NCBI GenBank assembly: GCA_031425695.1
Contig: JANPJV010000314.1
Coordinates: forward strand, 2,293 to 66,292
Length of the DNA stretch: 64,000 bases
Reading direction: 5' to 3'
Source of the DNA: Rhodanobacteraceae bacterium
Lineage (GTDB): Bacteria > Pseudomonadota > Gammaproteobacteria > Xanthomonadales > SZUA-5
Shown: positions 7,249 to 37,518 of the stretch, in pieces
How positions within the stretch are numbered: the first letter of the stretch is position 1
How the letters are laid out: each line of letters starts with the position of its first letter
Translations under genes and position numbers: made by a program
Notes under the pieces: generated by a model
Seen by the model: the letters and a program-made list of their open reading frames with translations, nothing else
What the model was told of the DNA's origin: nothing
The model's database searches: none

Positions 7249-7527
7249 GCCGTGTGTCCTTCTACAAAAGTTCTTGATGCTGGCCGGTCCGAGCGCTGAC
7301 GCGCATCAATGAGGATCCGGGTAATGAGCTTAAGCCGCCGGCCGCGCGCTCTCGCGCAAAGTCGACTGTGGGAGTAAAGCTCACTGCAGCACCAGATGTC
7401 GGCCGAGCCGGTGAGCTCTTGGACGGTTGCCTGGCTTGGCGCAGTGATAGGGCCCCCCGCTAACCGCTGAAGTCTAACTGCAGATGGGAGTCGGGTGCAT
7501 CCTTGACGGTTGAAGGATCGCGAGGTC

Positions 7528-8716: not shown

Positions 8717-8760
8717 ATCATTGCTCGCCGGCTACGCGTCTGGCTTGTGACGCGCGTCAA
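8717..8760 (-). promoter_or_regulatory. putative Mor/C-type activator-dependent promoter upstream of dam (dyad copy 3)
   Basis: Minus strand reads TTGACGCGCGTCACAAG (8760..8744; perfect 12-bp palindrome TGACGCGCGTCA at 8748-8759). A -10-like AATGAT (8722..8717) sits at the same spacing as in the copies at 22841 and 34712. Confidence 0.45.
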
Positions 8761-9607: not shown

Positions 9608-9861
9608 GGCAGCGGGTCGCTCATGCGCAGCACCCGCACGCCACCGGCAGTGTCCGGCGACATCACCAGCGCGATGGTCAAGTGGGCGTCGGCGCCGACG
9701 AACCACTCGTCCGGATCCCGTGCGGAAAGCGTGTTGCGAAGCGTCTCGACGGTTCCGAGAGACTTCCGCCCGTCCACGCCGAACAGCTCGATCTGATCCT
9801 CCGGCTTCAATGCCGGATGACCGAGCAGGGCGAGCATTTCGCGGTTGCGAAGCGGGCTCAT
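9604..9861 (-). CDS. hypothetical early protein
   Basis: 85 aa, ATGA-coupled on both sides within the early operon. Confidence 0.6.
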   Translation of the reverse strand: MSPLRNREMLALLGHPALKPEDQIELFGVDGRKSLGTVETLRNTLSARDPDEWFVGADAHLTIALVMSPDTAGGVRVLRMSDPLP

Positions 9862-10370
9862 GGCTCGACGTTCCCGAGAAGCGCCACCAGGAGCGAGTCG
9901 AGCTCGCTGTCTTGCGGCCTGCAGAAGGATTCGTTGCTGCCGTCAATGCGTTCGACTTTGAGGCGCTTGAGGGCCGCGTCGTCGAGCTGGGCAAGCGCCG
10001 CCTTGATGGCGGTCTCGCTGACCTGCACAAAGCTGGCGTGATTCTCCGGATAGAGGCGCCGGATCAGCGCGATGGTCTTTTCCTCGTTGGCAATCTCGAG
10101 CCGGTCACGGCTCTTCTTGAAGCCGACCTTGACGCCCGAAATCACAAGCGATTTCGGATCCTCGAACAGCTCGGGCGCCGCGGTGACCAGCTCGTGCGTT
10201 GCCAGATGCGCGGCAGCAACACGAGCCATCAAGCGCCGGATGCCGGCGACGTGGCGCTTCTTGACCTGGTCGACCTGCTTTTGCAGCACGGCGACCTTGG
10301 CCGCGAGCCGCTCGCGCTCGCCGGAAAGCTTGGTACAGGAACGTTCGATCTTCTGCAGTTTGTTGCTCAT
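9858..10370 (-). CDS. gam: Gam-like host-nuclease inhibitor (putative)
   Basis: 170 aa from ATG 10370. N-terminal coiled coil (ERERLAAKVAVLQKQVDQVKKRH), then a layout resembling Mu Gam in size and topology (ISGVKVGFKKSRDRLEI...FVQVSETAIKAAL). Confidence 0.55.
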   Translation of the reverse strand: MSNKLQKIERSCTKLSGERERLAAKVAVLQKQVDQVKKRHVAGIRRLMARVAAAHLATHELVTAAPELFEDPKSLVISGVKVGFKKSRDRLEIANEEKTIALIRRLYPENHASFVQVSETAIKAALAQLDDAALKRLKVERIDGSNESFCRPQDSELDSLLVALLGNVEP

Positions 10371-10738
10371 GCTGGTGGCTCCAGTCGGATGCGGAGTTGC
10401 CCAGCCAGGTCGGGGAGTGAAACCTTGCGCATCGCGGCGACCTGCTTCAGCCCGGTCATGCCGCGTCGGTAGAGGAACATGCAGGTGGCCGAGAGCTCGC
10501 CCTCGTCGGCCGCCATGAAGTAGCCATGCTCCGGTGTCGCACAAACGTGGTGCCCGCGGAGACGCAGATCGACAACCAGGTGCCGCAGCTGGCGATCGTT
10601 GACCAGGTCCTTTTCCGCCATGCGGTTGACCGCTTCCGCAAGCGCCCGGGCGGGCATACCTCGCGGGGCGCCGACGTGCAGCGACAGCACGGCCAGGAGG
10701 ACCTGGTGCTCCTGGGTGAGTGGCGGTAGTTCCGTCAT
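10367..10738 (-). CDS. hypothetical early protein (winged-helix-like)
   Basis: 123 aa from ATG 10738 (MTELPPLTQEHQVLLAVL...). ATGA-coupled. Confidence 0.6.
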   Translation of the reverse strand: MTELPPLTQEHQVLLAVLSLHVGAPRGMPARALAEAVNRMAEKDLVNDRQLRHLVVDLRLRGHHVCATPEHGYFMAADEGELSATCMFLYRRGMTGLKQVAAMRKVSLPDLAGQLRIRLEPPA

Positions 10739-12699: not shown

Positions 12700-13926
12700 T
12701 CAGACCTCCCGCACCAGCTGCGCGCTGATCTTGTCGAAACCAAGCTCGACGGCCTGGTTCAATGCCCGCACGAGCGCGTTGTTGACGTTCAGCGGGTAGC
12801 TGTGGTCCTCCGGGATGTTGCTGCCCTGCCGCGACAACAACAGGCGCTGCCGAAGGGCCTGCAGTGCATCCTTCTCGAAAAGCTTCTCGATGGCGTCTTT
12901 CCCGAGCACGCGAACGAGCTTGTGCTCGACGTAGCCGGCCAGGTCATCACCGAGTGGTCGAAGCGTCGCCACTTCGCAGCGCCGGATGAACTCGCGGATC
13001 TTCGAGTTCTTGCGCTCGTCCAGGATCAACTTCAGCTCGGGCTGGCCGATCAGGATGATGCCGAGCAGCTTGCGGAAGCCGTCCTCCAGCTCCCAGAAGC
13101 GCTTGAGGTAGCGGAGCATGTCCATCGACAGGTCGTGCGCTTCTTCGATCAGCAGCACGTGCGTATTGCCTGCGGCTGCGCTCTCCGCCAGCACACGCTC
13201 GACCTGCCGTGCCAAGCCCTCAAGATCAGATTTCGGGGTTTCCGAGCTGACGTCTGCGAGGACCGCCTGGCAGACGTGATTGGCGGTCAGCTTCCGCTTG
13301 TCCGTGCACTTCACCTTGATGACGGTGATTCGCTCTTCGCTGCGCGCCAGGCGCTCGATCAGGTTGCGTTTCAGTGTCGACTTTCCGGCGCCGCTCTCGC
13401 CGATCACCGCGAGCAGCCCGTTGTGTTTGGCCGCGTAGTACATCGCCTCGCCCACGAAGCGCATGTCGCGGCTGATGAAGACGTCCCGGCCGCAGGTGAT
13501 GTCGTTGTTGCCGAACGGGTTCTGGTGCAGGTTGAAATGACGGCGAGCGGCCTCTGAAAGCATTTCGGACTCCGGGACGGTTTGGCTGAAGGTTGGTGCA
13601 GCTTTCTCGCGGCTCGCCGGCCGGCTTTCTTCCGGGGGACGGGAGTCCGAGGTGGCGACCTCGGGCTCCCAGAGTCCATCGACGCTCTGCCCGGTTGCGG
13701 CGACGGCACGCTCGATTCTTTTTCTGATCTCCTCCGTGTCGTAGCCGACTGGCCAGATGCCGTGGTTGCACAGGTAGTGCAGCGTGGTGCGGCTGATCCG
13801 ATTGCCGAGCCGGCCGTGTTTGATATCGGCCAGCTCGGCCGCGAGATGGGCTGTCGAGATCCGGCCGCGCCGCATGGCGCTCTTGAGCCCGATGGCCGGG
13901 TTCATGGCGTGGTCGGGGTTTCTCAT
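12700..13926 (-). CDS. transposition ATPase B (MuB-like, ExeA-type AAA+)
   Basis: 408 aa: N-terminal HTH-like region, Walker A GESGAGKST and Walker B HVLLIEEAH. Lies downstream of transposase A. Confidence 0.85.
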   Translation of the reverse strand: MRNPDHAMNPAIGLKSAMRRGRISTAHLAAELADIKHGRLGNRISRTTLHYLCNHGIWPVGYDTEEIRKRIERAVAATGQSVDGLWEPEVATSDSRPPEESRPASREKAAPTFSQTVPESEMLSEAARRHFNLHQNPFGNNDITCGRDVFISRDMRFVGEAMYYAAKHNGLLAVIGESGAGKSTLKRNLIERLARSEERITVIKVKCTDKRKLTANHVCQAVLADVSSETPKSDLEGLARQVERVLAESAAAGNTHVLLIEEAHDLSMDMLRYLKRFWELEDGFRKLLGIILIGQPELKLILDERKNSKIREFIRRCEVATLRPLGDDLAGYVEHKLVRVLGKDAIEKLFEKDALQALRQRLLLSRQGSNIPEDHSYPLNVNNALVRALNQAVELGFDKISAQLVREV

Positions 13927-14655: not shown

Positions 14656-16401
14656 CTACCGGACTAGGGCCAGACGCGGGCGCTCCTCCTGAGCAGGCTG
14701 CGAGAGGCGGTTGACGATCTCCCCGAGATCCGTCTCGGGGACTCCTTGTGGGTACCACTCGGCAACGAGCTCGCGCTCGGGGCTCGATATCGGCCGGCCA
14801 AGCCACTCGCGCAGCGCGCGCAGGGCCTCGACCAGGGAAAGGGGTTTCAGCTCGACCTGCACGGGGTTCGGTACGTGCAGATCCGTGCCGCGGCGAGCGA
14901 TGTGTTGGGGCGCGGCTGCGGCCTTGGCGGCGATGTCCTTCCAGACGTCGAAGCGCCCCTCGTGCGCGGGTACGCCCTTCGCGCGCAGCTTCTCGACTTC
15001 ACCGGAATCGGCGGTGCCGTAGGCCAGCTGGTTCTGCGCTTTGCGCGCCTTGTCGGCGCCGGTGTCGGGCTTTGCGGCGTAGGCCTCGCCGATGATCGGG
15101 GCGAGCACTGAAAACCCAGCTGCGTTCGTTTCTTGCGGTTCGCAGACGTGAAACCGCGTCTTGCCTTCCGCGTCTTCGCGCACGATGCAGATCGCTGGCG
15201 CGCGGTAGGCATTCACCACAACCTGCAGTACTTCGCCGACGCGGATATCTGGAACGTGGTCGACGCCGTAGGTACGGCCCTGCCATTGCACGGTCAGATC
15301 ACCGCGCACCGTGCGCGGCTCCGGCTTGCTGGTCAGCAGCTCGCGGCAGATCTGCTCGTCCGGGCGGTTGCGCAGTTGGCTCGCCTGCACCGTCTGCCAA
15401 AGGCCATAGCGGGTGTGGCCGTGCCGGGAGTGGATTGCGCAAGCGTTCTGCGCGATCAGCCAGTCGTCGAGCCGTTCGTTGAGTTGCTCGACCGTCGGTA
15501 CGCGCGTGAAGGCGAGCCGCGATTCGAAGCGGGTCTCGACGATGTTGTTGCCGTTCTCGACCTGACCCTTCGCGCGGCTATTCCCCTGGGTGTGCGCCCA
15601 ATGGCGCACCTGGAGCGCGGTGAGCAGCTCCTGGATGCCGTGCGAAGTGTTGGCCGAGCCCTTGTCCCAGATCAGGCAATAGGGAACGCCGCGCATGATG
15701 TGTGCGGCATTCGTCGGCAGCATCGCCGACATCAGGAACTGGAACAGAACCGCCTGGTTCTCGCCCAGCGCTTCGAAGTAGCGCGCGTAGATGGACCCGC
15801 TGTAGTGGTCCGTCTGAACGTAACGCCACACGCGCAGCGGCGTCATCTTTGCCACGTAGTCCGGCTTGTTCTTGTAGAACTGGCGCTCGTCCAGCACCCG
15901 AACGCCGTCGCGCTGCGAGTAGTAGACGATGCAGATCGAGGGGTCGACCTGCCAGACGTGGTTGGGGTGCAGCGATTGCAGCTGGGTGTGCGGGCGCGGT
16001 GCGCCGACCTGCTTTCGGTGCAGGTCGTATTGGGTGAAAAGCCGCAGGGCCGTCGCGCCTGAGATCCGCGTTGTGAGCCAGCCGTTAGAGAGCGCCATGT
16101 CGATCGCGTCGTCGACGCTGCCGAGCCACTTGCCGTTGACGCGCCGGCACCCGGCTCCGGACCACAGGGTGGAAAGCGTCAGCAGCTCGTCGTAGCTGAT
16201 CTTGCTGTCACCTTTGTCGCTGCGCAGCTTGCGTTCCTTCGCGGCTCCGATCTCTCGCAGGCGCCGGTAGAACGTTGGCGCCGAGCAGCCAAGCCAGTGC
16301 GTGGCTTCCGCCACGATGCCGTCTTTCTCGCCGTGGCCCGCATTGCGCAGGCGCTCGGCGAATCCGCGCAGCATGTCCAGCTCGGCGAGCCCGGCGCGCA
16401 T
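14656..16401 (-). CDS. Mu-like DDE transposase A
   Basis: 581 aa: N-terminal HTH (WLGCSAPTFYRRLREIG) and an integrase-core (rve) region. DDE candidates are HVWQVDPS, CLIWDKGSANTS and RAKGQVENGNN. Confidence 0.9.
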   Translation of the reverse strand: MRAGLAELDMLRGFAERLRNAGHGEKDGIVAEATHWLGCSAPTFYRRLREIGAAKERKLRSDKGDSKISYDELLTLSTLWSGAGCRRVNGKWLGSVDDAIDMALSNGWLTTRISGATALRLFTQYDLHRKQVGAPRPHTQLQSLHPNHVWQVDPSICIVYYSQRDGVRVLDERQFYKNKPDYVAKMTPLRVWRYVQTDHYSGSIYARYFEALGENQAVLFQFLMSAMLPTNAAHIMRGVPYCLIWDKGSANTSHGIQELLTALQVRHWAHTQGNSRAKGQVENGNNIVETRFESRLAFTRVPTVEQLNERLDDWLIAQNACAIHSRHGHTRYGLWQTVQASQLRNRPDEQICRELLTSKPEPRTVRGDLTVQWQGRTYGVDHVPDIRVGEVLQVVVNAYRAPAICIVREDAEGKTRFHVCEPQETNAAGFSVLAPIIGEAYAAKPDTGADKARKAQNQLAYGTADSGEVEKLRAKGVPAHEGRFDVWKDIAAKAAAAPQHIARRGTDLHVPNPVQVELKPLSLVEALRALREWLGRPISSPERELVAEWYPQGVPETDLGEIVNRLSQPAQEERPRLALVR

Positions 16402-20095: not shown

Positions 20096-20485
20096 ATGTC
20101 AGCCAAGTACAAGCCGTTTGACCACATCGTTCATCCGCAATTTGTGCCTGGCTGGGTCGGCATGGCTGGATTCGTAAGCGGCATCCTCGCCTTGATTGGT
20201 GCCCTCGGCGTGGTCGCTGGTGGCATCCTGATGCTGGTCGCCTTTTCTACCGATCCGGGCACGACGTTCAGCCCGAAGCCGCCACCAGTCTTGTCGGCGA
20301 TGGGCGCCACCTATCTCATCGGCATGTCGCTTTCGATCTTCGCGCTGGCGTCGATCGTTGACAACCTCGCCGCATGCCGACTGCACCTGCTGGAGCTGGT
20401 CACATTGAAGGCTGTGGAGCAGGGAGTGCCACCGAATGTCGAGCCCGATGTGCAGACCTACGTGGGTCCGAGCACTGGTGCATAG
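20096..20485 (+). CDS. membrane protein (2 TM), accessory operon gene 1
   Basis: 129 aa with GGAG 8 nt upstream, starting 18 nt after the repressor-like gene. TM helices GMAGFVSGILALIGALGVVAGGILMLVAF and ATYLIGMSLSIFALASIV. Confidence 0.65.
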   Translation: MSAKYKPFDHIVHPQFVPGWVGMAGFVSGILALIGALGVVAGGILMLVAFSTDPGTTFSPKPPPVLSAMGATYLIGMSLSIFALASIVDNLAACRLHLLELVTLKAVEQGVPPNVEPDVQTYVGPSTGA

Positions 20486-20663
20486 AGGGGTGCGCCGCCC
20501 GGCACAGCTTTGCCACATCGAAACCCCCGTGGCCGGGCCTCTTGCGAGATCGATGCTTCCGGGCGGCGCAGGGTCATTCTCAGCCCGTGAGACTGACCCT
20601 GTCTATCAGTGAACAGCGCGAGCTGGCGTAGGAAATTTCCGACAACCCAACCCGAGGAACTCC

Positions 20664-21035
20664 ATGAACATCGACGTCATTGGAAACGGCAACAACACCG
20701 CTGGACGCGACCTGACGATCGTCCACATCACCCGCGACAATCTCAAGCTCTCCTGGGAAGCCCGCGTCACCGAGCACCTGCGCCCGCTCCAAATGCCGAT
20801 GCTGCTGTCGCTCCTCGGCCTTGTGTCCTGGGGCGCGGCCATGATGGGCGCGAACTACCTTGCAACCTACTACCGGGTGATGCCGCTTTTCGAGGATGCC
20901 GCTGTCGCCATCTATGGCATTGCCGGGTTCGGCTTTACCGCGTTTGCGATGTACACGCGGCGCAGGGCGGAGAAGGCATGCAGTGATGCGGGCGGCATCG
21001 CGCCAGGTGGGACATTTGGCGCCTCGGCGACATAA
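20664..21035 (+). CDS. membrane protein (2 TM) with N-terminal IDVIGNGNNTAGRDL motif, accessory gene 2
   Basis: 123 aa with a GAGGAA Shine-Dalgarno. The N-terminal motif is shared with ORF 22677 and with the repressor C-terminal domain. Confidence 0.65.
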   Translation: MNIDVIGNGNNTAGRDLTIVHITRDNLKLSWEARVTEHLRPLQMPMLLSLLGLVSWGAAMMGANYLATYYRVMPLFEDAAVAIYGIAGFGFTAFAMYTRRRAEKACSDAGGIAPGGTFGASAT

Positions 21036-21068
21036 CGTCAGGTTCAACCAACACCTACAGGGGGTGTC

Positions 21069-21953
21069 ATGCGACAGATCACAGCTAGCGTAGTGAACAT
21101 CGATGCCCATCCGCACGAGCCAGGCACCTATGGGTCCCTGATGAAGCAGCTCGTTGGCAGGAAGGTAGCTTATCGCGCGGAACGCTCGATGGTCGTGCGA
21201 GGCTTCGATGGCGATGGTCAGATACGCGGCGGAACTATTGTCACGTTCACCGACTTCGACCCAGACGCGCCCTGGTTCGACCCTGAGCTGCTAGACACTG
21301 CGGACGTCCGCGCGACCGAGGCCGCAAGAGCGGCGGTTCAGAAGATCAAGCCTTCCATGCAGGTTTTTCGCGCTGCGCTTGCCGAGATGAACGGCAGCAT
21401 TCACTGCCTCGTAGTCGAGACCAAGAATGAAGAGGGTGAATCGCTTTCGATCTCGCTCGTAGCTGAAGCGCTACGAAAGCTTGCCCTTGGCGTTTTGGGA
21501 GATGCCCCCAAAATGACCGTGAGCTTTTCTGTCCTGTCCAGCAACGACGAGGTGGAAAGACTGCTTTCAAAGCCGAACATTCAGCGCCTGCACGTCATTG
21601 TCTCGATGCCGAACATCGATGATGGGGAGGCCGAGGACAATGCTGTTCAGGAGGAATTGGAAAGGCTTGGCGCGACAAAAGAGGAACGAATCTTGACCGC
21701 CCCCGTCGCAAAGACCGGCGGCATCAAACCAGACGAAGAGTTGAAGAGGCTCGCGCGAGTTGCTTCGCGGCATGGCCGAGTAGAGGTCACCCACGGTTCA
21801 CGCGGCAAGACGAGAATTGAATCGACGTCCGACAAGCCTATTGTCGAGACGGCCAAGCCACATGATAAGGAGCCCTACTCCAGCGCCTTTAAGGGCTTGA
21901 TCAAGCAGTTCATCACTAGGCTCGCGATAGGAAAGAAGTTGGATAGCCAATGA
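21069..21953 (+). CDS. soluble 294-aa protein of unknown function, accessory gene 3
   Basis: AGGGGG Shine-Dalgarno and no TM segments. ATGA overlap with the following membrane protein. GC is visibly lower than in the phage core genes. Confidence 0.7.
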   Translation: MRQITASVVNIDAHPHEPGTYGSLMKQLVGRKVAYRAERSMVVRGFDGDGQIRGGTIVTFTDFDPDAPWFDPELLDTADVRATEAARAAVQKIKPSMQVFRAALAEMNGSIHCLVVETKNEEGESLSISLVAEALRKLALGVLGDAPKMTVSFSVLSSNDEVERLLSKPNIQRLHVIVSMPNIDDGEAEDNAVQEELERLGATKEERILTAPVAKTGGIKPDEELKRLARVASRHGRVEVTHGSRGKTRIESTSDKPIVETAKPHDKEPYSSAFKGLIKQFITRLAIGKKLDSQ

Positions 21954-22606
21954 GCGACAACGGCACCATTGACGTACTCAAGGTTGTTTGGGATATCTCT
22001 GGCGGGTGGCGGCGTATCTCACGCGCTTGGTACACCTGGGCGGCCCTGCTGATCAGCGTTCTCTGTTGGTCTCTCTGGTGGGACGCTGCCTGGTGGGATC
22101 TGTCGCTAGAGATCATCCCTGGAATGCTCGGTTTTTCGCTTGCCGGGTTTGCAATGATGTTGGCGTTTGGAGACGACCGATTCCGTGCCGTCCTTTCAAG
22201 GGCAATGGTGGTGACAGGCGGGGAAGGTACGTCCAAACATTCGGCCTTCATGGGATACGCAAGCATCTTTGTGCACTACTTGGTGGCACAGGTCCTCGGT
22301 CTCTTGCTTGCGATAATCGCCAAGGCCGAGCTGGGAATTCTCCCGCTCGTTGGTGGTACCGGGATATTTCGTTTCGCCATCGGCATTTGTCACTTCGTCG
22401 GTTTCTTCTTCGTCGTGTATTCGATTCTCATGGCCCTCGCAGCAACCCTCGCGGTTTTTCGCATGGCGCGAACCGCCGACAAAATCCAGCGGCTCCCGCC
22501 GCCCAAGCCTGATGCTGTGTCGCCAGAGGGCGAAATGTCCCATCCCGCTTCAGGACCTGTTGTCCCCGCGTCAGCTGCATTAACCCCGCCTGTCACCCGC
22601 GCATAG
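21950..22606 (+). CDS. polytopic membrane protein (about 5 TM), accessory gene 4
   Basis: 218 aa. TM helices include WAALLISVLCWSLWW, IIPGMLGFSLAGFAMMLAF, IFVHYLVAQVLGLLLAIIA and FAIGICHFVGFFFVVYSILMALAATLAVF. Pro-rich C-terminal tail. Confidence 0.7.
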   Translation: MSDNGTIDVLKVVWDISGGWRRISRAWYTWAALLISVLCWSLWWDAAWWDLSLEIIPGMLGFSLAGFAMMLAFGDDRFRAVLSRAMVVTGGEGTSKHSAFMGYASIFVHYLVAQVLGLLLAIIAKAELGILPLVGGTGIFRFAIGICHFVGFFFVVYSILMALAATLAVFRMARTADKIQRLPPPKPDAVSPEGEMSHPASGPVVPASAALTPPVTRA

Positions 22607-22676
22607 TCCCAGAGTCGCCTGGGAATTGCCTTCTCCCCTGGTTGCCATACTCGACTATGGCCGGGGGCGACCAAGC

Positions 22677-22835
22677 ATGAGCGACATTGATATCGAGGGC
22701 AGCAGTAACGCAACTTCTGGGCGCGACCTGGTCGTGGTGGTGATCCATCTGCACTTGAACATCGGCAGCGTCCAGCAGCTGGTGATGACGAATGCTCCGG
22801 CGCCGGAGCCCAAGAAAGCCGAGCCCCCGAAATAG
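22677..22835 (+). CDS. 52-aa protein with IDIEGSSNATSGRDL motif, accessory gene 5
   Basis: ATG 22677 inside track ORF 22626..22835. Sequence: MSDIDIEGSSNATSGRDLVVVVIHLHLNIGSVQQLVMTNAPAPEPKKAEPPK. Confidence 0.45.
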   Translation: MSDIDIEGSSNATSGRDLVVVVIHLHLNIGSVQQLVMTNAPAPEPKKAEPPK

Positions 22836-22836
22836 T

Positions 22837-22888
22837 CTCTTTGACTCACGTCACAAGACCCTAGACAGCCCTCGCTCCTAACCTGCAC
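22837..22888 (+). promoter_or_regulatory. putative Mor/C-dependent late promoter (dyad copy 1) upstream of the lysis cassette
   Basis: CTCTTTGACTCACGTCACAAGACCC...TAACCTGCAC. The dyad TGACTCACGTCA is at 22842-22853 and the -10-like TAACCT at 22879-22884. A near-identical block lies at 34708-34759. Confidence 0.5.
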
Positions 22889-22914: not shown

Positions 22915-23253
22915 GTGATGGAAACGGAGCGCACCACGGGGCCGGTCGAAGGGCCTATTCCGATGTCGCCGACAGAGGCGACGATCCACGAATTCGCTAC
23001 CGGCTGGCCGGTGCTCGTGCTGTTTCTGCTGTGCCTGATCGTGGTCTGGTGGATCGCGCCGGAGCGCGCGGCCATTGCGATCTGGATCCTCTGCCGCCTG
23101 GCGCTCGGCGCGTTTGCCGGGAACCTTTTCGGCGGCCTTCTTATCCCGATTGGTGACCCGCAGCAGCTTACCGGCCTCGCGCGCGGCAACGCGATCAACG
23201 CGCGAGCGGTCTGCATCGGCTTCGGCATGCTGGCCGCAGGCTGGACTCTGTGA
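22915..23253 (+). CDS. holin-like membrane protein
   Basis: 112 aa with 2-3 TM helices (WPVLVLFLLCLIVVWWI, AIAIWILCRLALGAFAG, AVCIGFGMLAAGW). GTGA overlap with the endolysin start. Confidence 0.6.
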   Translation: MMETERTTGPVEGPIPMSPTEATIHEFATGWPVLVLFLLCLIVVWWIAPERAAIAIWILCRLALGAFAGNLFGGLLIPIGDPQQLTGLARGNAINARAVCIGFGMLAAGWTL

Positions 23254-24017
23254 AGCTGCTAGGTCTCCTGGCGCTCTGCACGCTGCTGTTTCGGCTCAGC
23301 ATCGATCACTGGCCGCGGCTGCGCGACTGGTCTCTCCGCGAGGAGAGCGACGAGATTCTGAACATCGCCTACTGGTGCGACTTCGCCGTGGTGCTGATCC
23401 TGGCGATGATGGTGATCGCGAGCAGTCCCGCCGAGGCCGCCCCAGGTGCGGGCGCGACGCCTCACATTCCCGTGCGCGCGGACGGCTATTCCAAGCTGCT
23501 CGAGCGGGAAGCGGTCGGGCGCTTCGGCCTCAATGCGCCGGTCGCGTTGCTGGCGGCGCAGCTCCATCAGGAGTCGGGCTGGCGCACTGATGCGCAGTCG
23601 CCATACGCGCAAGGCCTCGCGCAGTTCACGCCAGCGACCGCGAAATGGATTCCCGAGGTGTGTGCTGACTTGGGTACACCTAACGTCTGGGACGCGCGCT
23701 GGTCGATCCGTGCGCAAGCCTGCTACATGCGGCACCTGCATGCACAGGTGGCCGACGCGGCGACGCCGTGCGACCGCTGGGCGATGGCGCTCTCCGCGTA
23801 CAACGGTGGCTTGGGGTGGCTCAATCGAGACCGGAAACTGGCGTCGGCTAACGGGGCTGATCGTGCCGTGTGGTTCTCGAATGTCGAGCTTCACTCCAAG
23901 CGCGCGGCGTGGGCCATCGCAGAGAACCGCGGTTATCCACGCCGCATCTTGACCACCCTCGAACCCACCTATCTGGCGGCCGGGTGGCCGGGGAGTCGCA
24001 CGTGCCCGGCTCTGTGA
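23250..24017 (+). CDS. lytic transglycosylase-type endolysin (SLT domain) with N-terminal hydrophobic segments
   Basis: 255 aa with the SLT catalytic region LLAAQLHQESGWRTDAQSPYAQGLAQFTPATAKW and ALSAYNGGLGW. N-terminal TM/signal-anchor-like helices. Confidence 0.8.
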   Translation: MKLLGLLALCTLLFRLSIDHWPRLRDWSLREESDEILNIAYWCDFAVVLILAMMVIASSPAEAAPGAGATPHIPVRADGYSKLLEREAVGRFGLNAPVALLAAQLHQESGWRTDAQSPYAQGLAQFTPATAKWIPEVCADLGTPNVWDARWSIRAQACYMRHLHAQVADAATPCDRWAMALSAYNGGLGWLNRDRKLASANGADRAVWFSNVELHSKRAAWAIAENRGYPRRILTTLEPTYLAAGWPGSRTCPAL

Positions 24018-24756: not shown

Positions 24757-25006
24757 GCCGCAGTTTGTCGAGGTTCCCGGACCGACGCGGTTCGTTGCGG
24801 TCCCGGAAAACCTGACGGCACCGACGCCGGCGCCGAACGTGCCGATGCCGCTGTGCGTCGATGCGGAAGGCTTCCCGGTGCTCTGCAACCGGCAGCTGGA
24901 TGAGCTGCGCGAGTCCTACGCCTTCGTGCTGAAGATGTGCAACGACGACAAGGCCGCAATCGCCACGCTACCGCTGAAACCCGAGGACGGAAGTGGACAG
25001 GATTGA
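24656..25006 (+). CDS. o-spanin lipoprotein (Rz1-like), overlapping the Rz 3' end
   Basis: 116 aa from ATG 24656 (GAGGGA upstream). Signal peptide plus lipobox in MKRMPIAVRGLLVLCAALALTSC. Pro-rich mature part. Starts 100 nt inside the Rz gene in another frame. Confidence 0.7.
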   Translation: MKRMPIAVRGLLVLCAALALTSCSTEQKRPPLSEPQFVEVPGPTRFVAVPENLTAPTPAPNVPMPLCVDAEGFPVLCNRQLDELRESYAFVLKMCNDDKAAIATLPLKPEDGSGQD

Positions 25007-25202
25007 CCGCGCCGAGCAGCTCGAACAGATCGCACGCGACGCCGGCATTGCCGGCGTCCGCGCAGCTGCGGCTGCTCAACAGGTGCCAAGCGGGCGCACG
25101 CACTGCGACCGCTGCGACGAGACCATTCCGGTGATGCGCCTGGTGTTCGTGCCCGCGGCCCGGCATTGCGCTTTCTGTGCGTCGCGGTTGGGCGTGTCGT
25201 GA
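24993..25202 (+). CDS. TraR/DksA-family C4 zinc-finger protein
   Basis: 69 aa with CDRCDETIP...CAFCASR. Confidence 0.7.
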   Translation: MDRIDRAEQLEQIARDAGIAGVRAAAAAQQVPSGRTHCDRCDETIPVMRLVFVPAARHCAFCASRLGVS

Positions 25203-32480: not shown

Positions 32481-32654
32481 ATGCCACGCAAGGCAAAAGA
32501 GTCGAGCGCGACGTTCAAGCGCACCAGGGACGGGTTCCGGATCGTGATGCGCGGTCAGCTCGCCAACGACTTCTTCCGGTGTCTGCTCAAGCACGCGGAG
32601 CCACCGCCAGGCGCTGCGCCCGCGGCACCAGTTGCGCCCGCAACGCCGGAATGA
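32481..32654 (+). CDS. hypothetical 57-aa protein
   Basis: Below the track size cutoff. GGAG 7 nt upstream. MPRKAKESSATFKRTRDGFRIVMRGQLANDFFRCLLKHAEPPPGAAPAAPVAPATPE. Exactly fills the portal-F gap. Confidence 0.45.
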   Translation: MPRKAKESSATFKRTRDGFRIVMRGQLANDFFRCLLKHAEPPPGAAPAAPVAPATPE

Positions 32655-32657
32655 CCG

Positions 32658-33593
32658 ATGACGCCGCTGGAAGCTTATCGCGCGGAATTGCGCCGGCAGC
32701 TGGCGGCCCTGCCGCGCCTGCAGCGCAAGACGATCGAGAGCGTCGTCGCCGAGCTGCAGCTCGCACGTACCTCGATCCTCGCTGAGCTGGCGGCTGATCT
32801 GAGTGATTCGCGCCGGGCATCGCGCACGCGGATGCTGGCCGAGGTGGAGCGGCAACTCTCGGCCTGGTCGAGGGCCGCGGGCGAGATCGGCAGCGCCGCG
32901 GCGAGCACGAGCTGGACGGCGGGGATGGAATTGGTGCGTGCACCAATCGCTGCCGCAGGCCTCGGTGTATCGGTCGGGAACCGTATCAATCCTCGCGCGC
33001 TAGCCAGCGTGCAGCAGGTGTTGACGAACCTGATCTCCGATGCGAGCAGGAGCGCGATCGCGCGCATCAACAGCGTGATCACCCAGACGCTGATCGGCAC
33101 CACGGCCCAGGCCGATGCGATCAGCCAGGTGTCGGCGATCCTTGATGCGCCGCGCAGACGGGCGCAGACGATCATCTTCACCGAGGTCGGCCGTGCTCAC
33201 GCGATGGCATCCCACGCCGCGCTGGTCGAAGCGGCTGCCCAGATCCCAGGACTGCGCAAGCGCTGGGTTAAGAGCGGGAAGATCCACCCGCGCCGCGATC
33301 ACGTCGCCGCGCACAACCAGGTGCAACTGGCCGCCGAGCCGTTCCTCGTCGCGGGCGAGCGGCTCATGCATCCGCGAGATCCGAACGGTAGTGCGAGCAA
33401 CACAATCAACTGCGGCTGCATGTCGGTGCCGCTGGTCGACGGCTCGACGCTGGGCGCCAGCACCGTGCGCATCGACCGCCGCACCGGCGAGATGACGCTG
33501 GAACGCCGGCCAGGCCTGACGCCGGCCGAGGAAGCACTTGGAATCACTCTCGACCAGGTCGCGCAAGCGGGCCTGATCGTTGTCCGCGGGTAA
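32658..33593 (+). CDS. head morphogenesis protein (Mu F/gp30, SPP1 gp7 family)
   Basis: 311 aa. RRAQTIIFTEVGRAHAMAS...HPRRDHVAAHNQV...NCGCMSVP is typical of the family. Confidence 0.8.
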   Translation: MTPLEAYRAELRRQLAALPRLQRKTIESVVAELQLARTSILAELAADLSDSRRASRTRMLAEVERQLSAWSRAAGEIGSAAASTSWTAGMELVRAPIAAAGLGVSVGNRINPRALASVQQVLTNLISDASRSAIARINSVITQTLIGTTAQADAISQVSAILDAPRRRAQTIIFTEVGRAHAMASHAALVEAAAQIPGLRKRWVKSGKIHPRRDHVAAHNQVQLAAEPFLVAGERLMHPRDPNGSASNTINCGCMSVPLVDGSTLGASTVRIDRRTGEMTLERRPGLTPAEEALGITLDQVAQAGLIVVRG

Positions 33594-33612
33594 TTCAACA
33601 GGAGACGCAACG

Positions 33613-34221
33613 ATGGATGGAACACGGGTTCGAAGTCTTTATCTGCAGGTGGCAGTCGCAATCGCGGCGCTCGGTTCCGAGCTGGGGATTGCGGGAATCA
33701 CCGGAGAGGGGCCGCGATCATTGGTATACGACGTACAGCCGCAGGGCTTTTATCGACTCGGCAAAATCGAAGAGTTCCGCGAAGAACTGTTCGCGCAGAC
33801 CGACGATCCGCTGGCGCAGCGTTTCGCGGAGGGCATGCCGGATTTCTACTTCGTCCAGGATGGCGACGAGCACGTCACGCTGACTGCCCAGCAACGCGCC
33901 CTGCAGGACTTCAACTGCAGCAACGGCAAGTTCACGATGATCGCGATTTACGGCCAAGACCCTTGGACGGCCTACGGTGAGTCGGTGGTCCAGTCGATCG
34001 ATGCGGATGGCGCAGCGGTCAACACGCGCATCCTGGTCAATGGGAAGTGCGTGGGCTTCTTTGCCGACGACACTGCGGCGCGCGGCCGCTGGCCGGCGAC
34101 CATCAATCCCAAGGCTGCCGATGCGGGCAAAGTGGCGCGAGCTGCCTACCAGCGGTTTCGGCAGAGTAATCGGGCAAGCGCGGAACCGATGCCGGCGGGG
34201 TGGGCGGGAACGCCAAACTGA
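33613..34221 (+). CDS. hypothetical protein (occupies the Mu G position but is unlike G)
   Basis: 202 aa from ATG 33613 with an AGGAG Shine-Dalgarno. Confidence 0.6.
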   Translation: MDGTRVRSLYLQVAVAIAALGSELGIAGITGEGPRSLVYDVQPQGFYRLGKIEEFREELFAQTDDPLAQRFAEGMPDFYFVQDGDEHVTLTAQQRALQDFNCSNGKFTMIAIYGQDPWTAYGESVVQSIDADGAAVNTRILVNGKCVGFFADDTAARGRWPATINPKAADAGKVARAAYQRFRQSNRASAEPMPAGWAGTPN

Positions 34222-34299
34222 CGTCCTCTTGGCGACCAGGCTGCGCGGCTTGGTCGCCGTGGCGATTAGAATCGTGCTCCCGACCGAGGAGCACATCCA

Positions 34300-34707
34300 A
34301 TGGGATCCATCTTCAAATCTGCTGAAGCAGAGTATTTAGAGACGAAAGCAAAGTCGGAGCAGCGGCGGCAGCAGAATGAAATCAAAGGGAGGCAGTACAT
34401 CGCCGTCATTGCGAACCTGCTTCGTCACGAACACGAATTCGTAAAGGCGCGACATTCGAACTCGAAAGTGGAGGCAAACGAGCTCCAATGCACGCTTTCA
34501 ATAGCAACTTCCAGTAGTCGCGATGCTCATTCGAAATTCTCGGCGTGGTTTGATGCAAGCCAAGAGCAGATGGAACTGACGGCTGTAGTTCCGCCAGCAA
34601 AGTTTGATCGGACGTGGACGATTGGGGTCAAGGACTACAAGGGGACGGAAGCAGAGGAGCTGCTCCGCGAGTTCGCCCTTGCCTATGCCGGATTCGTGCA
34701 CGGCTAG
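34300..34707 (+). CDS. low-GC moron protein, unknown function (anti-defence candidate)
   Basis: 135 aa with a GAGGAG Shine-Dalgarno. Composition is clearly AT-richer than its neighbours. Bracketed by a hairpin (34231-34258) upstream and late-promoter dyad copy 2 downstream. Confidence 0.65.
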   Translation: MGSIFKSAEAEYLETKAKSEQRRQQNEIKGRQYIAVIANLLRHEHEFVKARHSNSKVEANELQCTLSIATSSSRDAHSKFSAWFDASQEQMELTAVVPPAKFDRTWTIGVKDYKGTEAEELLREFALAYAGFVHG

Positions 34708-34759
34708 CTCTTTGACGCGCGTCACAAGACCCAACCCAAGGACCTGCTGCAACCTGCAC
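34708..34759 (+). promoter_or_regulatory. putative Mor/C-dependent late promoter (dyad copy 2) upstream of the head/tail operon
   Basis: CTCTTTGACGCGCGTCACAAGACCC...CAACCTGCAC. Perfect palindrome TGACGCGCGTCA at 34713-34724 and a -10-like CAACCT at 34750-34755. Confidence 0.5.
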
Positions 34760-34790
34760 GCTGACAAGAAGTTCACCCTTCGAGTACAGC

Positions 34791-35231
34791 GTGATGACAA
34801 AGCAGACTTCGCCCGCGGCATCGAAAGCAGCCCGCGTGCAACCAGTCCGGCCGGTTGGGGCCGAAACGCAACCCGGAGCTGGCTCGCCGCCGGCTCCGGG
34901 CTCTGCCAACCCGAATAACAGCGCCCACGGCGCGAGCCAGCCGGGTGATGCAAAGACCGGCACCACGGACCGTCCCACCGGTGGGGAGCCACCGGTGGGC
35001 GCGTCCAGCGACGCGGACAAGGCAGCCCCGAAAGCCCCCGCCTCACACAAGCTGACCAAGCACCGCGACGCGGTCAACGCTGACGTTCCCGCGGCCGTGT
35101 ACGACGCCGCCTGCAAGCTGCGCCCCGGCCTCACCGATGTGCTCGCGGCGCGCAAGTACTCCGATCACTGGGTGCTGGTAGGCATGACGGCGAACTGGGC
35201 CGGCAAGGTCGAGGTGCCGCATGGCCCGTAA
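34791..35231 (+). CDS. hypothetical protein with Pro/Gly/Ala-rich N-terminal half
   Basis: 146 aa (GTG 34791 or ATG 34794). First gene after dyad copy 2. Overlaps the next gene by 11 nt. Confidence 0.55.
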   Translation: MMTKQTSPAASKAARVQPVRPVGAETQPGAGSPPAPGSANPNNSAHGASQPGDAKTGTTDRPTGGEPPVGASSDADKAAPKAPASHKLTKHRDAVNADVPAAVYDAACKLRPGLTDVLAARKYSDHWVLVGMTANWAGKVEVPHGP

Positions 35232-37518
35232 GTCGCTGATGGCGACCGCGATCATGGCGGGGCTCGCATTTGCCGGGCGCTTCGTCGAAGCCGACGGCGA
35301 CACCGAGGGCCACTTGGTTGAGGGCTCGCTGTCGTTCGACCAGACGTCGAACCTGCTGCAGGCAGCGCTGCGCCGTCACTACGGCCTCGGCCAAGCCGAG
35401 TGGATCTATCCCGATTCGATCTACGCCGACCGCGTCATCGTGCGTCGGGACGGCAAGCTAATCGAGTTCCCCTATTCGATCGCGGCCAACAACGAGATCA
35501 CGCTCGGTGCGGCTCGCGAAGTGGTCATGGAGCCGGTGCCGATCTCCGGGCAGCTGGTTGAAGCGGTGAGGAGTGCCGATGACCAGGCGCCGACCAATCG
35601 CTTCGTGATCCGCGTCATTCGCAGCGGGCTCAGCCGCAACGGCGTGGACTACCCCGCGGCGGTGCTGCGTGAGTCGGCTCCGCTGTTTGACCGTGCGCGC
35701 GTCTGCGCTGTCAGCGACGAGGAGCACATCCGGGACCTGCCCGCCAAACGCGACGCCGGCAAGATCATCGGCCGGTTAAGCAAGCCGCGGTTCGTCGAGT
35801 CCGGTACCGGTGGCGAACTCCTCGCCGACCTGGTCGTGATCGACAGCGGCTGGGCAGACCGTTTCCGCGAGGCGATCTCGGCCGGCGCGGCTGACCTTTT
35901 CGGCTTCTCGATCGACGCATCCGGTACCTGGAAAAAGGCCGGACGTTTCCGCGAGGCCACCGCGATCAACAAGGTCGCATCCGTCGACGTCGTGTCCGAA
36001 CCGGGCGCTGGCGGTCAACTCATTCGCCTCGTCGAGGCCGTCAACCCCGCATCCCGTCACCAGGAGTCGATCATGAATCGAGCGCAAATGCTTGCGCTGT
36101 TGCAGAAGATGAACCCGAACCGGGCGGCGGCGCTTGCCGATGCGTCCGATGCGGAAGTTGCGGGCGCGTTCCGTGAAGCGTGCGAGCACGCTGCTCAGAC
36201 CAATGGGAACGGCGTAACCGCTGATGCCGTGGCCGAGCAGATCCGCATGGTGGAGGCGCGCGTCACCGCGCGAACCACGATCGCGGGCAGCGGCCTGCCG
36301 GCGCCGGCCGTCGAGCGCCTCCAGGCTGACTTCAACGGTCGCGCCAGCTTCGTCGAGGCCGACGTGACCGCGGCGATCACCGCCGAGCGTGCCTACCTGG
36401 GCCGCTTCGTCGAAACCCCGATCACCGGTCTCGGTGGCGGCTCGGTCGTGGCTGGCCAGGATCGTTCGGAAAAGGTACGCGAGCAGCTCGACCACCTGTT
36501 CGATCCCGCGCGCCGCGCCGGCTCGTTCCGCGAGGCCTACGCCGATATCACCGGCGACCGCGCGGTCACCGGCCTGCTCGCCAACTGCAACCGCACACGC
36601 CTGGCCGAAGCCCTCGGTGGCGGCCGGTTCGTGGAAGCGGTGTCGGCTGCGACTTTTGCCGAAATCCTCGGTGACTCGATCACCCGCGCGATGGTTCGCG
36701 ACTACAACCTGTCGAACATGTGGGATGACTGGCGGGTGCTGTGCGACGTCGTGCCCGTGAACGATTTTCGCACCCAGCGTCGCACCCGCATGGGCGGCTA
36801 CGGCAACCTCCCGGCTGTCGCCGAGAACGGCGCCTATGCGGCACTGACCACGCCGGGCGATGAAGAGGCGACCTACGCGGCCACCAAGCGTGGCGGCACG
36901 GAGACGATCTCGATCGAGGCGATCGCCAACGATGACGTCGGCGCCATTCGCCGCATCCCGAGCAAGCTGGCACAGGCGGCGAAGCAGACGCTGTATCGCT
37001 TCGTGCTCGATTTTCTGGCCACGAACGCGGCGATCTACGACACGGTCGCTCTGGCGCATGCCACGCACAACAACCTCGGGGCGACGGCGCTCAGCGCTGC
37101 AACCTTCGCGGCGGCGCGCTTGGCGATGCTGCAGCAGGTCGAGGCCGGCAGCACCGAGCGCATTGGGCTGGTGGCACGCCACCTGTTCATCCCGACCAAC
37201 CTCGAAGAAACGGCGTTCGACCTTTTCGTCCGCAACACCAACAACGACGAGACCTTCGTCCAGTCGCGCAAGCCCACGGCCCATGTCGTGCCGTACTGGA
37301 CCGACGCCAACAACTGGTGGGTCACCGCAGACAAGGCCGACGTCCCGCTGATCGAGTTGGGCTTCTACGGCGGCCGAGAGGAACCGGAGCTGTTCGTGCA
37401 GGACAACCCGACCCAGGGCAGCCTGTTCTCCAACGACCAGCTGAAATACAAGATGCGCCACATTTACGGCGGCGCAGTGAAGGATTACCGCGGCTTCTAC
37501 GGCGCCGTGGTCGCCTGA
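35221..37518 (+). CDS. prohead protease - scaffold - major capsid protein fusion
   Basis: 765 aa. The N-terminal third has HK97-type prohead protease features (SDEEHIRD...GKIIGRL...LFGFSIDASG). The middle is a helical Ala/Glu-rich linker. The C-terminal ~330 aa resemble an HK97-fold/Mu gpT-like capsid protein. An in-frame internal ATG at 36073 has a CAGGAG Shine-Dalgarno. Confidence 0.75.
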   Translation: MARKSLMATAIMAGLAFAGRFVEADGDTEGHLVEGSLSFDQTSNLLQAALRRHYGLGQAEWIYPDSIYADRVIVRRDGKLIEFPYSIAANNEITLGAAREVVMEPVPISGQLVEAVRSADDQAPTNRFVIRVIRSGLSRNGVDYPAAVLRESAPLFDRARVCAVSDEEHIRDLPAKRDAGKIIGRLSKPRFVESGTGGELLADLVVIDSGWADRFREAISAGAADLFGFSIDASGTWKKAGRFREATAINKVASVDVVSEPGAGGQLIRLVEAVNPASRHQESIMNRAQMLALLQKMNPNRAAALADASDAEVAGAFREACEHAAQTNGNGVTADAVAEQIRMVEARVTARTTIAGSGLPAPAVERLQADFNGRASFVEADVTAAITAERAYLGRFVETPITGLGGGSVVAGQDRSEKVREQLDHLFDPARRAGSFREAYADITGDRAVTGLLANCNRTRLAEALGGGRFVEAVSAATFAEILGDSITRAMVRDYNLSNMWDDWRVLCDVVPVNDFRTQRRTRMGGYGNLPAVAENGAYAALTTPGDEEATYAATKRGGTETISIEAIANDDVGAIRRIPSKLAQAAKQTLYRFVLDFLATNAAIYDTVALAHATHNNLGATALSAATFAAARLAMLQQVEAGSTERIGLVARHLFIPTNLEETAFDLFVRNTNNDETFVQSRKPTAHVVPYWTDANNWWVTADKADVPLIELGFYGGREEPELFVQDNPTQGSLFSNDQLKYKMRHIYGGAVKDYRGFYGAVVA

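Follow-up and report, generated by a model that had tools for sequence, protein, structure and literature searches.

Introduction

Variable slots between conserved phage genes were the first source of anti-CRISPRs and have supplied many counter-defence genes. Extra genes between conserved late genes are also familiar as the morons of lambdoid and other temperate phages; classical morons, in descriptions of the Juhala/Hendrix type, come with a promoter and a terminator of their own and are expressed in the prophage state. In phage Mu, the G-I intergenic region holds the C-dependent late promoter P_I, which has counterparts in Plys and Pmom. In JBD30-type phages, the anti-CRISPR cassette is located between head-morphogenesis genes, upstream of the protease/scaffold gene (PMC3993853). 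The MuF gene itself can encode polymorphic toxins, with immunity ORFs located downstream (Jamet et al. 2017, PMC5576092).

Here we analyze a window of 64,000 nucleotides, by which we mean the whole stretch of DNA under study, carrying a transposable prophage. An initial annotation had proposed that the interval between the F-type head morphogenesis gene and the protease-capsid gene is an accessory locus of three ORFs (here A, B and C), in the slot where Mu-like phages carry anti-CRISPR operons. The background on which that proposal drew, with acr genes beside the protease/scaffold gene in JBD30-type phages, is correct (PMC3993853). Our comparison with related loci (identified by L numbers) leads us to consider it likely that the interval has two parts, a cargo slot and a unit formed by a promoter and ORF C, joined at a conserved late promoter.

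Results

The interval between F and the protease-capsid gene

The F gene ends at 33593 and the protease-capsid gene (ProCap) starts at 35221, as annotated, and the three ORFs are found where they had been placed (Table 1). F was assigned through PF04233 (E=6.8e-7) and phrog_2468 (E=2e-30); the MuF alignment reaches the end of the 311-aa protein, leaving a C-terminal extension of 0 aa. In ProCap, residues 121-380 correspond to the protease (phrog_15531) and residues 476-760 to the capsid (PF25209). No sequence relationship was detectable between this head module and that of the D3112/JBD30 group. The order F then ProCap is kept in 82 loci of the clade, where the gap between the two genes has a median of 512 nt (range 143-2278 nt); the gap in the window, at 1627 nt, is the fourth longest of these.

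Table 1 Features of the F to protease-capsid interval and copies of the promoter-like element.
Feature	Coordinates	Strand	Remarks
Mu F-like (MuF) head morphogenesis gene, short form, 311 aa	32658..33593	+	left conserved slot border
ORF A, 202 aa, acidic (pI 4.9), cargo	33613..34221	+	rare unnamed phage protein family
Strong hairpin, 13-bp stem, no U-tract, just past ORF A stop	34230..34259	+	fold
Second small hairpin, pairing with ORF B Shine-Dalgarno GAGGAG	34274..34294	+	predicted structure
ORF B, 135 aa, orphan low-GC cargo	34300..34707	+	atypical codon usage
Conserved promoter-like element	34708..34759	+	right conserved slot border; candidate activator-dependent late promoter of C/protease-capsid operon
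ORF C, 145 aa from ATG 34794 (146 aa from GTG 34791)	34794..35231	+	core small gene
Protease-scaffold-major capsid fusion gene (ProCap), 765 aa	35221..37518	+	phrog_29592 E=2e-204
Element copy	22837-22885	+	upstream of holin-like and SLT lysozyme genes
Element copy	8742-8760	-	upstream of Dam-type methyltransferase

Domain searches returned little for the interval. ORFs A, B and C have no Pfam domain at E<=0.1, HTH domains included, in agreement with the earlier remark that no Aca-type HTH is evident. The ORFs of the interval gave no match in PHROG, which includes Acr and anti-restriction families, and PADLOC gave none for A, B, C or the cargo of sister loci. Sequence and profile searches of the PDB likewise gave no match for any of the three.

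ORFs A and B are cargo in a gene-turnover hotspot

Among the relatives, homology stops at the F stop codon, and what follows differs from locus to locus. The closest relative, L001 (F and portal both 87% identical), carries ORF A and lacks ORF B. In L004 (F 76% identical), the slot contains an unrelated RNA-polymerase alpha-CTD protein (PF03118, 25.3 bits, cutoff 23.8), and in L005 (F 74% identical) and L061 it contains a 62-aa minus-strand ORF. The slot is empty in L059, L006 and Microcystis phage Mae-JY22; in L059, the F stop codon is followed by 19 nt and then by the promoter-like element. ORF A is absent from L004, L005, L059, L060, L061 and L006.

Clustering of the 57 proteins of the clade that are cargo or F extensions gave 47 clusters, of which 39 have a single member; SLFN_AlbA_2, ORF6N, DUF2786+DUF7168, SNase and DUF2513 are among the cargo domains. 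Some minus-strand "cargo" ORFs in the GC-rich loci L081, L094 and L104 resemble reverse-frame artefacts, not genes.

These comparisons support the view that the slot, 33594-34707, is a gene-turnover hotspot with A and B as non-core cargo. The reading of these two ORFs as an accessory hotspot holds, and the turnover expected of such a slot among related phages was found for both. ORF C, which had been counted as accessory along with them, is conserved and fixed in position.

A conserved promoter-like element and ORF C lie to the right of the slot

The dyad copy reported between the second and third ORFs, TGACGCGCGTCA, is at 34713-34724. It forms part of a longer element with the layout CTCTT-TGACGCGCGTCA-CAAGACC, followed after ~20 nt by AACCTGCAC. 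An extended 24-nt version, CTCTTTGACGCGCGTCACAAGACC, recurs at 22837-22860 with two mismatches, and 100 shuffles produced 0 matches; the window has three copies of the element in all (Table 1). All eight relatives with an F identity of at least 60% keep it, always 3' of the cargo, with the ORF C analogue 36-84 nt further downstream. In L062 the palindrome is kept and its centre bases are changed. We infer that 34708-34759 could act as an activator-dependent late promoter; since a Pfam scan of about 40 window proteins found no PF08765-type match to a Mor/C-family activator, this assignment is made by analogy. The conserved element divides A and B from C, so the three ORFs do not form one locus or operon as originally proposed.

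ORF C is a core gene of the capsid operon, not an accessory one. In L001, L004, L005 and L059-L062, homologues are located at the same place, and in 72 of the 82 related loci, the isolated phage Mae-JY22 among them, a small ORF adjoins the ProCap start or overlaps it. The N-terminal part is of low complexity and abundant in Pro, Gly and Ala, bearing out the Pro/Gly-rich half first described; the C-terminal part contains the conserved motif ..RxYxDxWVLV..KVEV.. The end of ORF C overlaps the ProCap start by 11 nt, and its translation would be coupled to that of the protease-capsid polyprotein. ORF C probably acts as a partner in head assembly.

ORF A belongs to a rare phage protein family

ORF A starts 19 nt past the F stop codon, preceded by a GGAGA RBS, and has a GC content of 62.4% and a CAI-like index of 0.60. 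Its coding status is backed by a 17-member family alignment and by a dN/dS of 0.25 against L001, which shows that it is under purifying selection; its dN is four times that of F. The family is small: only 2 homologues were found among 5.8e9 proteins, a profile search recovered 16 representatives among 1.84e9 proteins, and tblastn found no match in 50,697 phage records. All 16 representatives are stand-alone proteins of 122-225 aa, with no fusion to MuF. The family has conserved Q-D, N-C-x-N and N-P-R motifs.

Family members occur only in phage or prophage contexts, and everywhere but in the window and L001 their neighbours are unrelated. Upstream of PolA, with conserved synteny, they are found in L012, L141 and L142; adjoining class II RNR, ThyX, dUTPase or FEN, in L002, L010 and L011. 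The member in L140, a Mu-like prophage, is an inverted single gene, and the homologue in L009 is located between the portal and major capsid genes. For L002, we considered whether the gene upstream of the A homologue might be F and dropped this assignment, as it has neither similarity to F nor a Pfam match; the locus is a nucleotide-metabolism module.

ORF A had been described as unlike Mu G, and our searches agree. It has no match to PF05069 (Mu G/virion morphogenesis protein gp31), and hhalign of the 17-member family against Mu gp31 gave a probability of 0.7%; the idea of ORF A as a Mu G analogue was therefore rejected. The AlphaFold2 model of ORF A, built from a 3-sequence alignment, has a mean pLDDT of 49 and is unusable; a Foldseek search of the PDB with it returned nothing at E<=0.001, an uninformative result given the model.

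Because the family is found elsewhere in replication and nucleotide-metabolism modules, ORF A is presumably not a virion-assembly protein, and we favor a soluble cytoplasmic auxiliary protein with no part in the virion. Members inside head modules (in L009, L001 and the window) mean that some head-related role may remain for it.

ORF B is a putative recent insertion

The low GC content of ORF B was reproduced: 52.9%, against 62-70% in the neighbouring genes (F 68%, ProCap 66%). Its GC3 is 0.61 versus about 0.8 in the neighbours, and its CAI-like index is 0.46 versus 0.68-0.73 for F and ProCap. Among 5.8e9 proteins it matches only itself, with no tblastn match in 50,697 phage records or about 140 related loci and no blastn match in plasmids; neither the slot nor ORF A or B had a match in the phage and plasmid collections, at the DNA or the protein level. 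A single-sequence AlphaFold2 model (mean pLDDT 49) was unusable. ORF B is probably coding, judging from this one sequence: its Shine-Dalgarno, GAGGAG, is 7 nt before the ATG, and a stop-free stretch of this length in DNA of 53% GC has an estimated P of about 0.003 per frame.

The region between A and B is strongly structured, with a predicted fold of -44.7 kcal/mol (z = -3.8) for 34216-34310. In L001, only about 30 nt separate the A stop codon from the promoter element, and the hairpin at 34230-34259 is missing, so this hairpin came with the ORF B insert. We hypothesize that ORF B, a low-GC orphan, was inserted recently and brought its own upstream hairpin. The hairpin after A could stop transcription, in which case ORF B would be unexpressed or separately expressed. 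A consensus scan of 33400-35400 found no sigma-70-like promoter, and a sequence scan around the slot found no plus-strand terminator-like site.

A model for the slot

Our model suggests that the cargo slot is situated at the 3' end of a first late transcription unit comprising the holin-like, SLT lysozyme, Mu gp27-like TerS, TerL, portal and F genes. It would be bordered by the stop codon of F and by the promoter element, and its cargo would be swapped among related phages, most simply via homologous recombination in both conserved borders. The second unit, 34708-35231, would consist of the promoter and ORF C. Since ORF A lacks a promoter of its own and starts 19 nt from F, its late expression is predicted; A and B would probably be made late, by read-through from the late operon. 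Such timing would fit a protein whose target is DNA or nucleotides, or one that prepares the progeny or is packaged, and would fit an immediate-early anti-CRISPR poorly.

This timing bears on the proposal that the slot is an anti-CRISPR or anti-defence locus equivalent to the acr region of JBD30/D3112, with A and/or B inhibiting host immunity, which we regard as unlikely. The position is analogous, with conserved head genes around and a protease/capsid gene directly downstream (PMC3993853), but there is no Aca-type HTH gene, and late expression, as predicted for A, is wrong for a classical Acr. Cargo turnover is extreme, as an anti-defence role would suggest, and yet the sister cargo is mixed (nuclease, lipoprotein-like, ORF6N, AlbA_2, alpha-CTD), so the slot does not serve a single function. 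ORF A is acidic, changes about four times as fast as F at non-synonymous sites and belongs to a family that behaves like a mobile accessory gene in phages of unrelated types; however, at 202 aa it is larger than most Acrs, and one phage group has it stably placed upstream of PolA. Neither A nor B has a known domain, in keeping with an anti-defence function, and the anti-defence assignment found no match in PHROG, Pfam or PADLOC. Taken with the searches for an Aca gene and for a promoter, these returned no link of the cargo to CRISPR or any other defence.

It is very improbable that A and B are a MuF-associated effector-immunity pair, in which F, as a pilot protein, would deliver A with the DNA and B would provide immunity. 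Such pairs, in which a small immunity ORF follows a MuF toxin, have been described (PMC5576092), and F carries C-terminal extensions of more than 80 aa in 12 of the 82 clade loci, including a PBECR2 nuclease domain in L140 and an ADP-ribosyltransferase-like extension in L062 (E=1.7e-4, below the Pfam cutoff). The F of the window, however, is the short form. The small ORF B is directly 3' of A, as the pairing would require, but A occurs without B in L001 and beside unrelated neighbours elsewhere, which a toxin would not tolerate. No MuF gene is near most of the A homologues, and hhalign of the A family against the seven F-extension groups of the clade gave probabilities below 1%; with this result and no fusion among the 16 representatives, ORF A as a split MuF extension was rejected.

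That A, B and C are all dedicated head-morphogenesis proteins, A replacing Mu G and B and C serving as assembly factors, is highly unlikely: A does lie where Mu has gene G, with F on one side and the I-type promoter on the other (Mu annotation), its L009 homologue is in a head module and all three genes share the late region and strand of the head genes, but A is unrelated to Mu G, A and B are absent where F is 74-76% and ProCap 75-77% identical, Mae-JY22 forms virions without them, and replication or nucleotide modules are where most of the A homologues are found, so that the reading applies to ORF C alone.

Discussion

We conclude that the F/protease-capsid junction is a variable slot with precise borders and dozens of unrelated cargo genes, in a clade of little-studied transposable phages from Xanthomonadales-like hosts, metagenomic relatives included. 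The core gene, ORF C, can now be told apart from the cargo, and ORF A has been placed in a small, so far uncharacterised family of phage proteins that travels between modules for replication and accessory slots of prophages. The value of the locus is a short, well-bounded candidate list for functional screens, with no demonstrated new mechanism. It is possible, if on balance rather doubtful, that the family of ORF A constitutes a new effector of phages, acting on host DNA/nucleotide metabolism or an immune pathway, fixed near PolA/RNR/ThyX in lytic phages and a mobile moron in Mu-like prophages. The slot would then be a guilt-by-location hunting ground for novel genes of counter-defence or host takeover, with ORF B and the L004 alpha-CTD mimic among them.

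Among known arrangements, MuF toxins share with this locus a variable region at the 3' end of the MuF gene, and the sister loci L007, L062, L064 and L140 have MuF C-terminal extensions followed by small ORFs. Unlike in those systems, F in the window has no extension, and ORF A is a separate protein that has no relationship to the extensions and is found in no MuF fusion.

The right-hand border recalls Mu P_I in having a promoter-like dyad directly upstream of the protease/capsid operon, and its copies before the lysis genes and before the DNA-modification gene at the prophage end recall Plys, P_I and Pmom as a set. In contrast to Mu, the element sequence is unrelated, no Mor/C-family activator was detected, and a small core gene, ORF C, is placed before the protease-capsid gene.

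The cargo also resembles morons: its presence varies among syntenic relatives, its composition deviates (52.9% GC in B, 62.4% in A) and it is located at a boundary between transcription units. Unlike morons, it has no detected promoter, only a U-less hairpin upstream of B.

With respect to the JBD30-type locus, the layout departs as the initial annotation had anticipated, having neither an Aca repressor gene nor a cassette promoter. The left border here is F itself, with no Mu G homologue; the head genes are not detectably related to those of the D3112 group; the cargo is appended to the late operon, shows no similarity to known Acr families (PHROG, Pfam) and comprises larger proteins, of many unrelated kinds in the sister loci. 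The likeness to the JBD30-type anti-CRISPR slot is positional only: as in the acr-aca locus of JBD30/D3112/DMS3, a variable cassette is located amid the head genes, directly upstream of the protease/scaffold gene, and its cargo varies between close relatives.

A variable slot between the head morphogenesis and capsid genes

The window carries a transposable Mu-like prophage. On the plus strand, a holin-like gene and an SLT lysozyme gene are followed by a Mu gp27-like TerS, TerL, the portal, the MuF head morphogenesis gene (F), the interval studied here with its three ORFs (A, B and C), the protease-scaffold-capsid fusion gene (ProCap) and the tail genes. ORF listing and reading of the sequence confirmed every coordinate of the initial annotation. 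Pfam and PHROG searches assigned no family, HTH included, to ORF A, B or C, in line with its remark that an Aca-type HTH was not evident. A 57-aa ORF without a family is squeezed between the portal gene and F, and an independent gene caller also predicts it on the Logan copy of the sequence (L003 499-672).

Features of the window discussed in the text
Feature	Position	Strand	Remarks
Host cytochrome oxidase gene	6187-7248		left of prophage
Dam-type methyltransferase (N6-adenine)	7804-8580	-	left prophage end
Element copy TTGACGCGCGTCACAAGCC	8742-8760	-	upstream of Dam-type methyltransferase
Gam-like gene	9858-10544	-	
MuB-like AAA_22 ATPase	12700-13926	-	
rve-type transposase	14656-16401	-	
Second run of atypical genes	20096-22835		
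DUF4747 protein	21069-21953		within second run
218-aa ORF	21950-22606		within second run
Element copy 1	22837-22885	+	two mismatches, same spacing; directly upstream of lysis genes
Holin-like gene and SLT lysozyme	22915-24017	+	
TraR/DksA-type protein	24993-25202		69 aa
57-aa ORF	32481-32654		
F	32658-33593	+	Mu F-like; PF04233, phrog_2468
ORF A	33613-34221	+	202 aa
ORF B	34300-34707	+	135 aa
Element copy	34708-34759	+	between ORF B and ORF C
Palindrome TGACGCGCGTCA	34713-34724		
ORF C	34791/34794-35231	+	146/145 aa
ProCap	start 35221	+	765 aa; starts within ORF C end; phrog_29592 E=2e-204, PF25209

We compared this interval across 82 distinct related loci that retain the order F then ProCap. 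The gap between the two genes has a median of 512 nt (range 143-2278 nt), and that of the window, 1627 nt, ranks fourth. About 28 of the 82 loci have additional ORFs (50 aa or longer), and in 12 of them F is extended by over 80 aa. The closest relative, L001 (identity to the window: TerL 88%, portal 87%, F 87%, ProCap 79%), has ORF A at only 60% identity and lacks ORF B, with about 30 nt separating the ORF A stop from the promoter-like element described below. In L004 (F 76%) the place is taken by an unrelated protein of 167 aa, which contains an RNA polymerase alpha-CTD domain (PF03118, scoring over the cutoff), in L005 and L061 (F 74%) a low-GC, 62-aa coiled-coil ORF runs antisense, and in L059 (F 75%) the slot is empty, the F stop being followed by 19 nt and the element. 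Cargo is also missing from L006 and the isolated Microcystis phage Mae-JY22 (F 39% and 37%), while L007 (F 40%) has an F with a 139-aa C-terminal extension plus a 98-aa ORF. ORF A in the slot is common to the window and L001 only. Sister loci hold SLFN_AlbA_2, ORF6N, DUF2786+DUF7168, a secreted SNase, DUF2513 and an ADP-ribosyltransferase-like F extension. Comparison across prophages thus revealed gene turnover in a hypervariable slot, with 57 cargo or extension proteins falling into 47 clusters (39 singletons), and this diversity marks the slot as a general accessory hotspot rather than a dedicated anti-CRISPR site.

Sequence similarity among relatives breaks at the F stop codon and restarts at the element, which makes these two points the slot borders. 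Homologous recombination in the two conserved borders would be the simplest mechanism of cargo exchange. In the L004 cargo gene (6942-7445) the alpha-CTD match covers the C-terminal 60 residues (25.3 bits) and the N-terminus is Cys-rich; this protein may be a phage-encoded alpha-CTD mimic.

A second run of atypical genes, among them the DUF4747 and 218-aa ORFs (GC3 0.65-0.67, CAI-like index 0.43-0.48), stops exactly at element copy 1 (22837) and looks like a further cargo slot. Its genes had no PADLOC match.

ORF C is a core gene

The initial annotation had treated all three ORFs as an accessory locus. This holds for ORFs A and B, cargo that is swapped or missing in relatives, but not for ORF C, which is core: L001, L004, L005 and L059-L062 all have a homologue at this position, sharing its C-terminal motif but varying in the low-complexity N-terminus. 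More generally, a small plus-strand ORF abuts or overlaps the ProCap start in 72 of the 82 loci, including Mae-JY22 (75 aa, 4-nt overlap). ORF C and these analogues belong to no known family and measure 60-255 aa, combining a P/A/G/K-rich low-complexity N-terminal region of very variable length with a short, conserved C-terminus. The dN/dS of ORF C is 0.70 against L001, with fast change mostly in the low-complexity half. A role as partner of the capsid polyprotein is suggested by the constant location of ORF C and by its overlap with the ProCap gene.

A promoter-like element borders the slot

The dyad reported between the second and third ORFs is indeed there, as the palindrome TGACGCGCGTCA. 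It forms part of an element consisting of the 24-nt CTCTTTGACGCGCGTCACAAGACC and, about 20 nt further on, AACCTGCAC, with three sites in the window; the 24-mer had no match in any shuffled sequence. In all eight loci with F identity of at least 60%, the element lies upstream of the ORF C homologue, 36-84 nt from its start codon, and any cargo is always upstream of the element. L062 retains the palindrome with different centre bases (TGACCCGGGTCA). Because the element separates ORF B from ORF C, the late transcription unit that ends with ORFs A and B would be distinct from the next one, which would start with ORF C.

In Mu, the C-dependent promoters include Plys, P_I and Pmom. Taking AACCTG as the -10 region would put the dyad centre at about -43, a layout that would resemble these promoters. 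The minus-strand copy, some 160 nt ahead of the Dam-type methyltransferase gene, has no AACCTGCAC box downstream, unlike the two plus-strand copies; this pairing of dyad and methyltransferase at the left prophage end resembles the late-expressed Mu mom. No Mor/C-family protein was found among the approximately 40 window proteins scanned. The TraR/DksA-type C4 zinc-finger protein inside the first late operon, which has a counterpart in the Mu-like prophage L140 (5539-5757), is a possible candidate regulator.

ORF A belongs to a rare family found in diverse contexts

ORF A is a real gene, given its GGAGA ribosome-binding site, a coherent family alignment and a dN/dS of 0.25 against L001, with a dN four times that of F. 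The alignment has two invariant positions (P76 and Q82) and eight nearly invariant ones (G45, E53, R56, D83, Q98, D153, N165 and P166). The family is rare: a word-seeded search of 5.8 billion proteins found two homologues, and an exhaustive profile search of 1.84 billion proteins found 16 representatives. All 16 are stand-alone proteins (122-225 aa), none is fused to MuF, and none is named in the source databases. One of them, P0018 (122 aa), joins 90 A-like N-terminal residues to a C-terminus matching flagellar rod Flg_bbr_C (E=2.5e-10), a chimera that probably arose in assembly.

We obtained eleven genomic contexts. Besides the F slot of the window and L001, the family occurs in L140 as one inverted gene flanked by the regulatory region and the lysis cassette, a place equivalent to the window's second atypical run, in a prophage whose F bears a PBECR2 toxin domain. 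In L009 its neighbours are a P22-type portal gene and Phage_capsid_3. It also keeps a fixed place ahead of DNA polymerase A (L012, L141, L142; synteny AAA-DUF2201-...-A-PolA-PD(D/E)XK), and is found beside class II ribonucleotide reductase, HNH, ThyX, dUTPase or FEN genes (L002, L010, L011). The reductase of L011 (2736-5588) is interrupted by an intein that includes a LAGLIDADG homing endonuclease domain.

ORF A is soluble and acidic (pI 4.9). The initial annotation called it unlike Mu G; it is indeed unrelated to Mu G, and to all of the clade's F extensions as well. The family's distribution across contexts argues against a structural role and fits a cytoplasmic auxiliary protein linked to DNA or nucleotide metabolism, host takeover or counter-defence.

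ORF B is compositionally foreign

The low GC noted for the 135-aa ORF was borne out: 52.9% (GC3 0.61, CAI-like index 0.46) versus 66-68% (0.82-0.84 and 0.68-0.73) in F and ProCap. ORF B is thus compositionally foreign. It found only itself among 5.8 billion proteins, with no tblastn match in 50,697 phage records or about 140 related loci and no blastn match in plasmids. Judged from this one sequence, it is probably coding. Its strong GAGGAG Shine-Dalgarno is in part occluded by a small hairpin, and its stop abuts the element (TAG followed by CTCTTTGAC), as does that of the L004 cargo. Upstream of ORF B lies a 13-bp hairpin without a U-tract (z = -3.8). This hairpin is missing from L001, which indicates that an insert of about 480 nt spans from the ORF A stop to the element.

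Comparison with known systems

The cargo slot is best described as moron-type and as placed where two operons meet; it provides a sharply bounded hotspot and a small protein family that is new, but no new mechanism. The initial annotation likened the interval to the anti-CRISPR (acr) locus of JBD30-type phages, and the placement of that variable cassette (PMC3993853) does match in position and cargo turnover. The analogy fails on the other defining features tested: JBD30-type loci have an Aca gene and a cassette promoter, whereas neither was found in the window's interval, its ORFs had no detected similarity to known families, and the head genes have no detectable relatedness to that group. 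We consider it unlikely that ORF A or ORF B is a counter-defence protein, and a specifically anti-CRISPR function more improbable still.

The MuF polymorphic-toxin system (PMC5576092) occupies the same neighbourhood. The window differs from it, as its F is the short form and ORF A is not an extension-type domain, but the system is present in sister loci of the clade. F C-terminal extensions there (L062 4706-5317, L140 150-1316, L124 5586-6563, L007 6901-7320) comprise ADP-ribosyltransferase-like (below the Pfam cutoff), PBECR2 nuclease, HEMGH-motif and unknown domains, often with small ORFs after them. These extended F proteins are candidates for MuF polymorphic toxins of Proteobacteria-type phages.
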